Shown here: piece by piece, positions 27,201-32,311 of the stretch
Position numbering within the stretch: position 1 is the first letter of the stretch
Layout of the letters: every line of letters begins with the position of its first letter
Source of the DNA: Minisyncoccota bacterium
Lineage (GTDB): Bacteria > Patescibacteriota > Minisyncoccia > Phycocordibacterales > Phycocordibacteraceae
Assembly (NCBI GenBank): GCA_018062765.1
Contig: JAGORR010000001.1
Coordinates: forward strand, 442,485 to 506,484
DNA: 64,000 nt
Reading direction: 5' to 3'
Notes under the pieces: model-generated
Told to the model about the DNA's origin: nothing
What the model saw: only the letters and a program-made list of their open reading frames with translations
Databases searched by the model: none
Made by a program: the position numbers and the translations under genes

Positions 27201-30200
27201 GCTTGGGCGGGTTACTGCAGCCCCAAACGGCTCGTACACGGATGTGGCGGGTGACTCGCGCGCTATCAGCTACGAGTATGCAAGAAAGGGGACGCTTGTA
27301 ACGAACTTCGTATCGCGCGAGACGCTTACAGACGATTCCGGAGTAAAGGTGAAGGAAGTACTGACCGAGTATGACGGCCTCCCTCTCGGCCAGGCGACGA
27401 AGGGTAACCCGACGACGAGCAAGGAGTGGGTAGCCGGGAGCGACTATCGCACTACGACGCGTACCTTCAATGCGCATGGTCTTCCGACATCCTCGACTGA
27501 CGCGCGCGGCAACAGAACCGGATACCGCTATGACAGCTATAGCTTGTATCCGATTTACATCGATAAACCCCTTGGACAAACCGTCCGGTATGCGTACGAC
27601 TACAGCTCGGGACAGGCGATTATTAAGATTGATGAGAACGGACAAACGTATCGAGACATCCTCGATGGTGTTGACCGCATAAAGGAGGAACGTGTCCCGA
27701 ACCCTACAACCGGAGCGTTAGTCGTGAAAGCTGTTTATGTTTACGATGACACCGCTACGCCGCGTAAAGTCACCCGTCAGGACTTCATCGCTCCGGGAGT
27801 CGCACGGGCCACAGTCACGTATCGCGACGGGTTTGGGCGGACAATCCAGGAGCGTAGGGAGATGGAGGCGGGAGCGTACGCCATCCGGGATATCGCGTAT
27901 GACGCGCGCGGTCTCGTAGCGAAGGAGTCACTCCCATACACGGGGACTGGTATCGCATACGCTGCGCCTACCAAGACCGCCTCCCTTTACACGAGCTATG
28001 TATACGATGCGCTCGAGCGACCTACGAGGGTCTTGACGCCAACCGGGGCAGTGACGAAGACGTACGCCAACTGGGTGGTCACCACGACCGATCAGAACGG
28101 GAAGACACGCATACACACGAAGGATGCGTTTGGCAGCCTGGTACAGGTAGGAGAGGTGAACGGAGGGTCGACATACCTGACGAACTACGCATGGGACGCA
28201 GCGGGTAATTTGTCCCGTGTTACTGACGCGCTCGGGAACATCCGGAACTTCACATATGACGGAATAGGGAATCGTCGTTCTGCGGAAGACTTGCATGCTC
28301 CGACTGACAGAGTGTTCGGTGTGAGGTCGTACGAGTACGACCTTGCAGGGAACATGACGAGAACGACGGATGCGCGTGGAGTCGTAACCACTATCGCCTA
28401 CGACTCCCTCAACCGGCCGCTATCTGAAGATGCGTCTTCCGGCACAGGCATAGAAACTTCCTACACGTATGACACCTGCACGAACGGGAAGGGGAAGCTG
28501 TGCTCGGCCGCGTCCCCCGGAAACATACTTGTAACCTATAGCTACGACCGGATGGGTGGTGTCGCAAGCGAGAGCAAGAGGATAGGCAACGCCACGTATA
28601 CGACGTCGTACGTGCGCGACTATAGCGGCAATCCCACATCGACGACCTATCCGGACGGCTCGAAAGTTGAAAATGCGTACAACGTAGCGGCGCTCCTCGA
28701 GTCGGTGAAGTTACGGGAGTCCAATGGGACGGTTTCCACCATGGCCTCGAATTTTGACTACGCACCTACCGATGCGGTTACTATCGCTGCGTACGGGGAT
28801 GGCACAACGCTCACGAACACGTATGACGCGACAAAGGGATATCGACTTACTAAAAAGCAGGTGACTAAGGGTGCTGCGAAGCTGCAGGACATTGCATACG
28901 AGTACGACAACGTAGGGAACATCACCAAGCTCACTGACACGTCACCGACAGCATCAAAGAAGACGGTGGCGTACACGTACGACGACCTATACCGCCTCAA
29001 ATCCGCAACAGCAACGGCAGTCGCTGCGTCGACGACCCCGTACATGCTTACGTACAGCTACGACGCCATAGGGAACCTTACAAATAAAGAGGGCGTCGCC
29101 TATACGTACGACGGAACTGCCACAGGAAACTACGCGAACCCGCATGCAGCGACGACCGTGGGAGGAAGTCCGCTTACGTACGACAGGAACGGCAACCTCC
29201 TCACATCGGCCGCAGGCTCGCACGTTTGGGACTATAAGGGTCGCCTCTCGCGCACGACGCTTCCTAACGGCACTCTTGTTGCGAACCTCTACGATCACGC
29301 AGGGGAGCGCGCCGCGCAGAACACTGGCGGAGTTTCAACTCACTATGCGAACGACCTCTACACGGCGTCAGGCAACAAGAAGACGCGCCTTATATATGGC
29401 AATGGGATGCTCCTAGCTTCGTCTGAGGCTGTCGGAAGCGTGGTGACGCCCTACTTCATGCACGGGGACCACCTCGGTAGCACGAATGTGGTGACCAGCG
29501 CCGCAGGTGCTGTCGTGCAGACCTTGGACTACTACCCATACGGCAGCACGCGCGTAGACACCTCGCCGGACGTCGCAAGCCGCGAGTATATTGGCGAAGT
29601 CTTTGACGAGGTGACAGGTCTCTCGTACCTCAATGCACGTCATTACGACGGGGGACGTGGGCAGTTCCTTTCCCAAGACCCTTCATATCTTCGAATAGGA
29701 GATTCGGGCTTTGAGAAGGTGTACTCACGCAAACTCCAAGAGCACCTAGCTAATCCTCAGGCGCTGAACTCGTACGCATATGCGCACGGAAATCCGATAA
29801 CGAATAGCGACCCAAATGGTGAGATACTACCTCTGTTGATAGGGGCATGGGCTATAGCTGAAATCGGTCTAAGTATTTATGACGGATATAATGCATACCA
29901 AACCGTTAATAATCCTGACGCAAGCGATTTCGAAAAAGGTATCGCAGTATCAGGGTTCGCTGCTGGATTGATAGGGCCAGCAGGAGGATACGGAACGGCC
30001 GGTAGTAAGGCTCTACAAATATACAAGCAGACTAATCCCGTGGGTCAGGCATTGATGAAGGGTGTTCAAAATGAAAAGGTTCTAAATCTGATCAGAGATA
30101 ACTACCGAGTAGTTAATGGCAAGCAGATCGGATCAGGGAGTGCTGTCGATGCCATGCTTCATACATTGAAGACCGGCAATTTTGTTGGGGGCACAGATCA

Positions 30201-30351
30201 TGTGAATAAGGTTCACGATAATGTCAGCCGTATTGGTAATCTTCTTGGTGATTCTTCACAGAGCTTCAATCAAGCAGACAAAAGCGCGCTTAGCAAGATT
30301 CTTCGTGATTCACAAAGAGCTATAAAGAAATATAATACTAAAAAGAAATAG
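24265..30351 (+). CDS. giant secreted polymorphic toxin: signal peptide, SpvB/TcdB-N-like domain, FG-GAP/VCBS-type beta-propeller repeats, RHS/YD repeats, RHS core ending in a DPxG-type motif, and a variable C-terminal toxin domain (2028 aa)
   Basis: Signal peptide (KPVALALAFTFLLSPLSPVLA). SpvB-like block (IYTYPISLPP...FGYSWELSIPSIER). At least six Ca-binding-like ADxNGDGxxDF repeats. More than 12 YxYDxxGN(L/M) YD repeats. RHS core signature ...GLSYLNARHYDGGRGQFLSQDP and a ...AHGNPITNSDPNGE junction. A 175-aa CT domain follows, with glycine-zipper-like hydrophobic segments. GC drops abruptly at the CT boundary (~29824). Confidence 0.85.
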   Translation: MAYVSAPAQRRIFAKPVALALAFTFLLSPLSPVLAEEVDTSTPTPADSPALTQPDAPANTPAPPAEESTLPTDTLPVEETSPEDAEQLPEEPAALDIAEEDVTPWNQTSRSKPDAKMDEKSGALIYTYPISLPPAREPAIDLPLTLTYNSQNQALSPFGYSWELSIPSIERVNKTGTDRLYDEQYFSSTISGELILDSGSTFIARSDEGERLVYTRTGDGWTMTDKQGTVYTFGDTSASRQDDPEDDSRVYKWMLSKVTSANGNTVVITYFKDRGQIYPNTVTYNGNGSRAGNLSVTFMRGYAMNSGTEYRNSPTLYSTGFGIKTEYLIDRVEVSHAGTVLRTYALAYEKGDADWKPLLSSVTESGRAEAGTAHVTLPPTVFSYKEFPAYEFTETSGSLWHAPAAFYTEVGNSRSTGLQIADLNGDTYPDFYKCDNGYASIHLNDTRGGWSDVSTDPAWAPQEACRHLEDRYTNSIALMFADVDGDLLLDQMYSVGTEYARSQSPAPFDGRIYLNTLASAPAGSPVWVGYPSYTVPGAALAQVDNDETIPLATRVADINGDGFPDFIFGAYNYPAERNDIRVYLGRGGDWVLAPEGTWVLPELIVEEHKRDIAALEDINGDNLPDILFAAGNQASYPEPVDEGAIYINTGSGWEPERDASAIDEHYQMPIAVEQTDYVGTDYGTRFADINGDGMTDLVNSQDDWTPQLRIRTGNTHLDQVHTDNLWLTKPLDQNLHYGLASNNGKIEHARLVDMNSDGVQDFIYSKDESTNGDRDAVPIRRTALGRGPGYSDILETITLQDGGKIKATYSPSSQYRSSSGELLNPALPLRILTVSSITRDNGRGAIGTDTYTYQGGHYYFNNPLDRRFAGFAMIEKKDSAGNVTRTYYHQGSSTNQTKGEVADHESKIGKTYRVEEFDNRGKLQRATTNAWGRVARGTGSFVKLLRTVTAEYDGLSSHAASAEEYAYDDASGNMTEHRLLGRVTAAPNGSYTDVAGDSRAISYEYARKGTLVTNFVSRETLTDDSGVKVKEVLTEYDGLPLGQATKGNPTTSKEWVAGSDYRTTTRTFNAHGLPTSSTDARGNRTGYRYDSYSLYPIYIDKPLGQTVRYAYDYSSGQAIIKIDENGQTYRDILDGVDRIKEERVPNPTTGALVVKAVYVYDDTATPRKVTRQDFIAPGVARATVTYRDGFGRTIQERREMEAGAYAIRDIAYDARGLVAKESLPYTGTGIAYAAPTKTASLYTSYVYDALERPTRVLTPTGAVTKTYANWVVTTTDQNGKTRIHTKDAFGSLVQVGEVNGGSTYLTNYAWDAAGNLSRVTDALGNIRNFTYDGIGNRRSAEDLHAPTDRVFGVRSYEYDLAGNMTRTTDARGVVTTIAYDSLNRPLSEDASSGTGIETSYTYDTCTNGKGKLCSAASPGNILVTYSYDRMGGVASESKRIGNATYTTSYVRDYSGNPTSTTYPDGSKVENAYNVAALLESVKLRESNGTVSTMASNFDYAPTDAVTIAAYGDGTTLTNTYDATKGYRLTKKQVTKGAAKLQDIAYEYDNVGNITKLTDTSPTASKKTVAYTYDDLYRLKSATATAVAASTTPYMLTYSYDAIGNLTNKEGVAYTYDGTATGNYANPHAATTVGGSPLTYDRNGNLLTSAAGSHVWDYKGRLSRTTLPNGTLVANLYDHAGERAAQNTGGVSTHYANDLYTASGNKKTRLIYGNGMLLASSEAVGSVVTPYFMHGDHLGSTNVVTSAAGAVVQTLDYYPYGSTRVDTSPDVASREYIGEVFDEVTGLSYLNARHYDGGRGQFLSQDPSYLRIGDSGFEKVYSRKLQEHLANPQALNSYAYAHGNPITNSDPNGEILPLLIGAWAIAEIGLSIYDGYNAYQTVNNPDASDFEKGIAVSGFAAGLIGPAGGYGTAGSKALQIYKQTNPVGQALMKGVQNEKVLNLIRDNYRVVNGKQIGSGSAVDAMLHTLKTGNFVGGTDHVNKVHDNVSRIGNLLGDSSQSFNQADKSALSKILRDSQRAIKKYNTKKK

Positions 30352-30353
30352 TT

Positions 30354-31877: not shown

Positions 31878-31909
31878 CCTTATGAAAGATTGGACGGTGT
31901 TTTACTATA

Positions 31910-32185
31910 GTGAACCGCGCGAAAAGAGACCTGACACCATTAGTAGTCATGACCTTAAGTATGGATAACGAGCAAATTAGCGCTTACGGAGGGCTCTTGC
32001 GAATGTCGAGAACACATTACATTCGCCTACAAATAGTGGTATTTGCGGTGCTCTTTACCACATTCATATCAACCTACATATTCGATACCAACGACTTCTT
32101 CCTAGGCAACACGCGCTTAGTTGTAGCTATTATCGCGCTACTGGAGGTAGTCGAGATGATCTACGTACTACGGAAACGCGTCTAA
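31910..32185 (+). CDS. small hypothetical membrane protein (91 aa)
   Basis: Two TM helices. Last ORF of the low-GC block. Confidence 0.3.
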   Translation: MNRAKRDLTPLVVMTLSMDNEQISAYGGLLRMSRTHYIRLQIVVFAVLFTTFISTYIFDTNDFFLGNTRLVVAIIALLEVVEMIYVLRKRV

Positions 32186-32311
32186 CGAGTCTTTTCCACA
32201 GGTCCGTTCTTGACTTGCTTTTTTAAACCGATTGTGCTGTAATTGATATGGCCGGTGCATGGGGTCGTCCCCACACCAAGAACCTTAAACTCTGACCGAA
32301 AGGGAGCCGCC

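Follow-up and report, generated by a model that had tools for sequence, protein, structure and literature searches.

A DUF7674 gene behind an uncatalogued toxin tip in an AT-rich block at an Rhs locus of a Paceibacteria-type bacterium

In Rhs polymorphic toxins, the motif PxxxxDPxGL marks the boundary between the Rhs shell and the variable toxin tip, and tips depart from their shells in guanine-plus-cytosine (GC) content and codon bias (PMC8636562). Here we analyse an AT-rich block of about 2.4 kb (positions 29824–32230) that comprises the 3′ end of an Rhs gene and four small open reading frames (ORF1–ORF4) in a Minisyncoccota bacterium (NCBI GenBank assembly GCA_018062765.1, contig JAGORR010000001.1, positions 442,485–506,484). 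The window is this whole stretch of 64,000 nucleotides; it is identical to a contig of the metagenome-assembled genome GCA_017991435.1, listed at NCBI as 'Candidatus Pacebacteria bacterium'. Our main subject is the toxin domain encoded at the start of the block and the DUF7674 gene (ORF1) behind it, for which we propose a toxin–immunity pairing. The genes run in the order DnaK, DnaJ, a 169-residue membrane ORF, a gene for a 2028-residue protein, ORF1–ORF4, a membrane gene, a SET-domain gene, a histidine kinase and housekeeping genes, and the part under study is made up as follows.

24265–29823, plus strand: Rhs delivery part, residues 1–1853, with Pfam matches to RHS_repeat, FG-GAP_3, SpvB and DUF6443, and TEN_YD-shell on record
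29824–30003, plus strand: linker, the first 60 residues past the junction; hydrophobic, Gly-rich and helical
30004–30351, plus strand: toxin domain of about 115 residues, all-α and basic (isoelectric point (pI) 10.2), stop codon at 30349–30351
30309–30336, plus strand: σ70-like promoter match (TTCACA, 16-nucleotide spacer, TATAAT; 11/12) within the toxin 3′ end
30354–30728, plus strand: ORF1, 124 residues, acidic (pI 5.1), a DUF7674 protein by its match to PF24722; starts 2 nucleotides past the toxin stop
30738–31082, plus strand: ORF2, 114 residues, acidic (pI 4.7), of a rare family with four known members; no Pfam match
31101–31877, plus strand: ORF3, 258 residues from the ATG at 31101, acidic, β-rich and cytoplasmic; a distant DUF3881 relative
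31949–32185, plus strand: ORF4, 78 residues from the ATG at 31949 set by gene callers, with two transmembrane helices predicted by hydropathy analysis
32199–32227, plus strand: terminator-like hairpin and T-run (a pattern match only), 14 nucleotides 3′ of the ORF4 stop and at the right GC step

The delivery part of the 2028-residue protein opens with a predicted Sec-type signal peptide and a Pro/Glu-rich linker, continues with an SpvB (TcB-like) region and FG-GAP propeller repeats, and ends in an RHS/YD shell. Pfam matches are to RHS_repeat (PF05593, E = 2e-18), with four stretches that confirm the RHS/YD repeats, to FG-GAP_3 (E = 1e-13), to SpvB (E = 6e-13) and also to DUF6443. The shell closes at the junction GNPITNSDPNGE (29794–29823; P1844-ITNS-D1849-P-N-G-E1853), which fits PxxxxDPxG with E replacing the usual L, a replacement common to the relatives P0020, P0021, P0023 and P0025. 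Two DP motifs lie at this end of the shell (29677–29823; SQDPSY and SDPNGE), 44 residues apart, compared with spacings of 22 in the Proteus locus L116 and 17 in the published account (PMC8636562); the extra segment between them (GFEKVYSRKLQEHLANPQA) is common to the relatives L004, L031 and L032 from the candidate phyla radiation (CPR). Related CPR shells (L003–L011) bear tips from outside the window's tip family. The 169-residue ORF upstream (23702–24211, between dnaJ and the Rhs gene) has several predicted transmembrane segments and a 31%-identical counterpart in the same position in L031 (5000–5449), and it might assist the Rhs protein as an accessory factor.

The preliminary description of this DNA had seen an abrupt AT-rich block beginning exactly at 29824, and the block itself is real: its GC fraction is 0.432 against a mean of 0.551 for the window, and the 2.4-kb stretch of minimum GC in all 64 kb starts at 29850 (GC 0.430, about 4.5 standard deviations under the mean of all 2.4-kb stretches). 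In a sliding-window plot, GC drops abruptly from about 0.58 to 0.39–0.45 around 29700–29850 and is back at about 0.60 at 32250, so the described return to the genome level before the membrane gene holds too. Change points placed by maximum likelihood fall at 29682 (left) and 32250 (right). The 2-lnL support interval of the left step, 29584–29870, spans the DPNGE junction and thus includes 29824, but the exactness claimed for that start is finer than the data can resolve; the best left point coincides with the first DP motif (SQDPSY), 44 codons 5′ of DPNGE. Amino-acid identity could not serve to place the recombination junction, since conservation of the Rhs end does not depend on which tip comes after it.

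Codon composition follows the same course. GC at third codon positions (GC3) is 0.63 in the Rhs core, 0.36–0.45 in the tip and ORF1–ORF3, 0.55 in ORF4 and 0.79 in the downstream membrane gene; the tip taken alone has GC 0.426 and GC3 0.36, against 0.559 and 0.63 for the shell. Within the block, GC is 0.40 in ORF1, 0.42 in ORF2 and 0.45 in ORF3 and ORF4. All four ORFs are present on the plus strand at the coordinates first proposed for them, with gaps of 9–71 nucleotides between them. The promoter-like match, strong but a match of pattern only, sits 18 nucleotides 5′ of ORF1 and might give the immunity gene a promoter of its own inside the toxin gene; the total of such sites is not above shuffled expectation, and the σ70 consensus may not be this lineage's. 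A search of the block borders gave no repeats, tRNA or Rfam elements, and no mobile-element genes mark a separate insertion in the block. The sole tRNA within 15 kb on either side is a tRNA-Tyr at 38406–38490, away from the border. A second, milder low-GC patch at 33000–34650 (GC 0.45–0.50) covers the SET-domain gene (33056–33580; PF00856, E = 2e-13), a 70-residue ORF and, in the histidine kinase gene, the 5′ part that encodes the membrane-spanning region.

Past the junction, the linker is modelled by AlphaFold2 as two helices with low to medium confidence. It is conserved in P0020, P0021, P0023 and P0025 and occupies the slot that the PT-TG pre-toxin domain fills in relatives; L004 and one family member have PT-TG there, whereas none was detected in the window protein. 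The toxin domain is modelled with a predicted local distance difference test score above 90. Its consensus is YRxGAxIGxGSTADAxRxExxTGxxVGGxxHxxK, in which G1956, G1958, H1979 and K1982 are invariant and D1962-A1963 nearly so. A profile built from two short relatives, themselves found by a word-indexed search, matched 568 relatives among 1.84 billion cluster representatives (E up to 0.001). In 147 of the 149 best hits the match ends at most 15 residues from the C terminus, on proteins of 76–2358 residues whose N-terminal carrier domains include RHS, SpvB/TcdB, PT-VENN with DUF637 (CdiA), PT-HINT, PT-TG and Phage_Mu_F. This C-terminal position on varied toxin carriers identifies the domain as a polymorphic-toxin tip, reused on RHS, CdiA, HINT and MuF carriers.

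The family is absent from the catalogues consulted. The 175 residues past the junction have no match in Pfam or NCBIfam (E up to 1), PADLOC or PHROGs, no Pfam or NCBIfam toxin family (E up to 1) appears among 148 full-length or 33 trimmed members, and phage records hold no match to the family. Sequence and profile searches of the PDB with the tip, ORF3 and DUF7674 gave nothing significant; a CdiA tRNase hit (5j5v) at E = 1.3 was disregarded. We also weighed the HEPN, PLD-HKD and Fic/Doc motifs for the tip, and the invariant residues fit none of them. Since the domain has two Gly-rich loops before helices, a His/Lys pair and a very basic charge, and the protein encoded behind it has no export signal, its target is probably a phosphate-bearing molecule of the cytoplasm (RNA, DNA or a nucleotide, for example). 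In L023 (1374–2493), a very short secreted protein joins a signal peptide to a few YD/RHS-end motifs and then the tip; its second junction motif, TDENGK, is without DP, and a run of N lies inside the gene on that contig.

ORF1 had been singled out in the preliminary description as the prime immunity candidate, and comparison across tip loci bears this out. It matches PF24722 with 36.3 bits (gathering cut-off 27; profile positions 2–97 of 111) and has neither a signal peptide nor a transmembrane segment, and its pI of 5.1 contrasts with the 10.2 of the toxin domain. A DUF7674 gene also follows the tip homologue in L023 (a short Rhs-tip protein, with a 4-nucleotide overlap), L031 (a 2358-residue Rhs protein, 2-nucleotide gap) and L032 (a 2064-residue Rhs protein, 1-nucleotide gap), which with the window makes four independent loci. 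We scanned metagenomes with a nine-sequence tip alignment and recovered 80 tip loci, 79 of them with an ORF of at least 50 residues that starts between −34 and +83 nucleotides from the toxin stop; 76 of these 79 ORFs are complete and encode 103–195 residues. With the window counted, 39 of the 42 non-redundant proteins directly downstream of a tip match DUF7674, on which ground ORF1 is the predicted cognate immunity gene of the toxin domain. The closest homologues of ORF1 (46–50% identical, in L038 and L039) again lie right behind a tip homologue, and pairwise tip identities correlate with those between the proteins encoded behind them (r = 0.55, reached by 0 of 2,000 permutations), a correlation to which shared ancestry contributes.

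The pairing extends beyond CPR genomes. Proteus mirabilis has it within an orphan Rhs array, and on a Kitasatospora plasmid the protein downstream of the tip scores 26.4 bits on DUF7674, marginally below the cut-off, with both genes labelled hypothetical in RefSeq. The Proteus locus (L116; NZ_OL790811.1, 1421055–1429345, from a record labelled a plasmid yet 4.08 Mb long) is an array of orphan Rhs tips that all open with MAGGINLYAYAPN...DPWG and all have a small ORF behind them; its third tip (3866–4300) belongs to the window's toxin family and has a DUF7674 partner at 4297–4701. Pfam assigns DUF7674 no function, the literature searched makes no mention of DUF7674 or PF24722, and sequence and profile searches of the PDB with DUF7674 returned nothing significant. 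A search of ORF1–ORF4 against the Imm*, SUKH and SMI1/KNR4 models, the immunity families named at the outset for a check, gave no match; DUF7674 on ORF1 was the sole family found.

The remaining ORFs had been suggested to be orphan immunity genes or remnants of toxin tips. The first suggestion finds support for ORF2 alone. ORF2 aligns over its full length (30% identity, E = 7e-9) with an ORF of an Uhrbacteria locus (L004, 10348–10722) that begins 5 nucleotides past an Rhs toxin stop. The tip there, PT-TG plus an unrelated domain, does not belong to the window's tip family, and a second tip is absent from the window. Because this homologue occupies an immunity position and the matching toxin is absent from the window, ORF2 is probably, with moderate confidence, an orphan immunity gene directed at another type of Rhs toxin. 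Two further relatives complete the three found in the data reached: one, 49% identical, lies in L024, where it immediately precedes an orphan fragment from the window's tip family that has another ORF 2 nucleotides behind it, and one, in L030, stands alone. In L004, the stretch 9801–11255 runs from the PT-TG tip, whose further domain bears the motif GSGHAFEKHV, through the ORF2-like gene to two 93-residue ORFs, and these genes may be a small immunity array. The second suggestion, tip remnants, fails: the gaps between ORFs are only 9–71 nucleotides, tblastn with the Rhs tip and the tip domain finds only the parent gene in the window, the sole match there to the hidden Markov model of the tip family is the 2028-residue ORF, and ORF2–ORF4 show no resemblance to the Rhs core end or the toxin tip.

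ORF2–ORF4 match no significant protein family in Pfam, NCBIfam, PADLOC or PHROGs. Together with 15 homologues, ORF3 forms a conserved family of proteins about 250 residues long, weakly linked to DUF3881; alignment of the homologues favours the ATG at 31101, and the TTG at 31095 is also possible. Its confident β-rich model has no informative structural match, sequence and profile searches of the PDB gave no significant one, and scans of viral contigs for ORF3 found nothing. Its 76%-identical homologue, on an unrelated contig, lies in an AT-rich patch of otherwise GC-richer sequence; this is a variable region (L025, 3000–10093) with DruA (Druantia) and NurA-like genes downstream, and it may be a defence island. 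In L118 (1841–2680), the gene behind an ORF3 homologue opens MGTWGTKLTNDDFTLD and has no Pfam match on record; this start resembles the N-terminal motif of DUF4259 proteins, which are often found among immunity genes. ORF4, called in both public assemblies, has an alternative GTG start at 31910 that would give 91 residues, and no homologue of it was found in plasmids, viral contigs or any locus fetched. No relative examined links either ORF3 or ORF4 to a toxin locus, and an immunity role for them is possible.

Exchange of the module had been proposed from its composition, and comparison with other genomes supports it. The same tip–DUF7674 module is found elsewhere in genomes of 38–43% GC, where the module itself has 30–43% GC; here it has 40–43% within a genome of 55%. 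That the genomes sharing it have 38–43% GC supports horizontal acquisition of the cassette. Compared with P0020, the tip is 59% identical and the Rhs core and shell 36%. A fall in GC after the junction is seen also in related Rhs loci from CPR and other bacteria. Other tip–immunity pairs at this same locus, which the preliminary description had proposed to look for in related genomes, did not emerge: the only syntenic relative, L031 (GrpE–DnaK–DnaJ–membrane ORF–Rhs–DUF7674), has the same tip type and the DUF7674 gene without ORF2–ORF4, L032 likewise holds tip and DUF7674 only, and a genome scan with the Rhs core returned only relatives of up to 45% identity, all of them at other loci.

Taken together, the block in this Paceibacteria-type (CPR) bacterium is very probably the swappable 3′ module of an Rhs cocoon toxin that is TcB/TcC-like and exported by the Sec route, with co-travelling genes. 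The module comprises the helical linker, the basic all-α domain of about 115 residues and the DUF7674 gene 2 nucleotides past the stop. We propose that the shell would enclose the tip and that a conserved aspartyl-protease motif at PxxxxDPxGE would cut it free; the tip would then enter a neighbouring cell and act in its cytoplasm, and ORF1 would bind and block it in the producer and its kin. ORF3 and ORF4 would be AT-rich passengers, acquired with the module or separately, and the unit would end at the terminator-like hairpin.

Several observations weigh against this account. Toxicity, neutralisation and cleavage of the tip are predictions from sequence, and the cell is a CPR cell without a type VI or type VII secretion system as a delivery route. 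The fold of the tip has no significant match in the PDB in sequence, profile or structure-level searches. ORF1 scores 36 bits on DUF7674 and gives no BLASTP alignment with the L023 member, and the correlation of tip and immunity identities can also stem from shared locus ancestry. No strain variants with an alternative cassette appeared, all four contigs that carry the flanking genes (by exact search with the flanking proteins) being identical. For ORF2, the immunity evidence is one locus at 30% identity; relatives of ORF3 adjoin SHMT, cREC_REC, DruA, T4SS-pilin or peptidase-like genes and never a recognisable toxin.

A possible, if doubtful, alternative is that the toxin cassette is confined to the tip and ORF1 (29824–30728), with ORF2–ORF4 being unrelated, horizontally acquired passengers at the same variable spot. 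The slight rise in GC from 0.40 and 0.42 in ORF1 and ORF2 to 0.45 in ORF3 and ORF4, together with the GC3 of 0.55 in ORF4, would fit separate origins, as would the tip–DUF7674 pair standing alone in L031 and L032 and the ORF3 family occurring alone in unrelated genomes. The ORF2 family, however, is tied to toxin loci in three of its four occurrences, and the block holds none of the mobile-element genes, repeats or tRNA that would mark a separate insertion. Conversely, the whole block could be a poly-immunity array in which ORF1 is cognate and ORF2–ORF4 all provide orphan immunity against the toxins of competitors. We consider this unlikely: the four ORFs are co-directional and tightly spaced in one AT-rich unit with a terminator-like end, ORF2 has its homologue in an immunity position, ORF2 and ORF3 are acidic and without export signals, ORF3 is sporadic in distribution with its 76%-identical homologue likewise in a low-GC patch, and the two-helix ORF4 could guard against a membrane-acting toxin, but homologues of ORF3 occur in six other contexts (L025–L029, L118 and Enterococcus) without an adjoining toxin gene, ORF4 has no homologue at all, and ORF2–ORF4 are missing from Rhs relatives that have the same tip, the syntenic one included. 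That the low GC reflects instead fast, weakly constrained evolution of a native, long-resident tip and small ORFs, without transfer, is very improbable, for although GC drops past the DPxG junction in most related Rhs loci whatever the GC of the genome, and mutation or selection common to these loci could underlie such a recurring drop, relatives agree better in the tip (59% identity) than in the shell (36%), the same module occurs in genomes whose overall GC equals its own, and ORF3 is 76% identical to a gene on an unrelated contig that is AT-rich there too.

If the reading as an exchangeable toxin–immunity module is taken up again, the locus type is a textbook Rhs tip and immunity cassette, and the new part is an uncatalogued toxin domain paired with DUF7674. 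DUF7674, a Pfam family without assigned function, thereby gains a testable role as an immunity protein, and its partner toxin domain, absent from Pfam and NCBIfam models and without a solved structural relative, is now defined, such that the tip could be annotated on hundreds of RHS, CdiA and MuF toxins. The family spreads over at least 568 cluster representatives, from CPR to Proteus, Serratia, Kitasatospora and Firmicutes-like lineages. Rather tentatively, the tip can be regarded as a widespread toxin domain whose all-α fold and mechanism are unlike those of any solved toxin, with DUF7674 as its dedicated inhibitor. The window also shows that an ultra-small CPR bacterium, from a group whose means of antagonism are poorly known, carries an Rhs cassette that bears marks of recent horizontal exchange; if the proposal is true, the tip in CPR epibionts could be a weapon against host bacteria or rival epibionts.

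Among known systems, the locus most resembles the Rhs polymorphic toxins (Rhs1–Tre23 of Photorhabdus, the Rhs proteins of Dickeya, Enterobacter and Serratia, and WapA of Bacillus subtilis), with which it shares the RHS shell, the PxxxxDPxG junction, a GC-deviant variable tip, an immunity gene directly downstream followed by extra immunity-like genes, and a tip family shared with other delivery scaffolds. WapA enters its export route via a Sec signal peptide, as predicted for the window toxin. The differences lie in the CPR host without a type VI or type VII secretion context, the E at the last junction residue, the DP spacing of 44 residues against about 17–22 in proteobacterial Rhs proteins, and the uncatalogued tip family. 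The carrier also resembles the TcB–TcC cocoon of Tc toxins (YenB/YenC, TcdB2–TccC3) in its SpvB N-terminal region, FG-GAP propeller and RHS shell within one polypeptide and in a variable tip behind an aspartyl-protease motif, and TcdB_toxin_midN occurs in relatives of the window protein. Unlike a Tc toxin, it has no TcA-like partner in the window (no other ORF in the 64 kb exceeds 703 residues), and the immunity gene behind it suggests that the target is a bacterium and not an insect. DUF7674 (PF24722), matched by ORF1 above its curated cut-off, is here linked to a specific toxin tip. Finally, the block recalls orphan immunity and tip arrays (orphan rhs of Salmonella, orphan immunity proteins of Serratia and orphan immunity islands of Bacteroides) in that ORF2 matches an immunity-position gene whose toxin is absent here; it differs in having no orphan tip fragments and homology support for one ORF only, while the Proteus locus carries the window's tip family as a classic orphan module.

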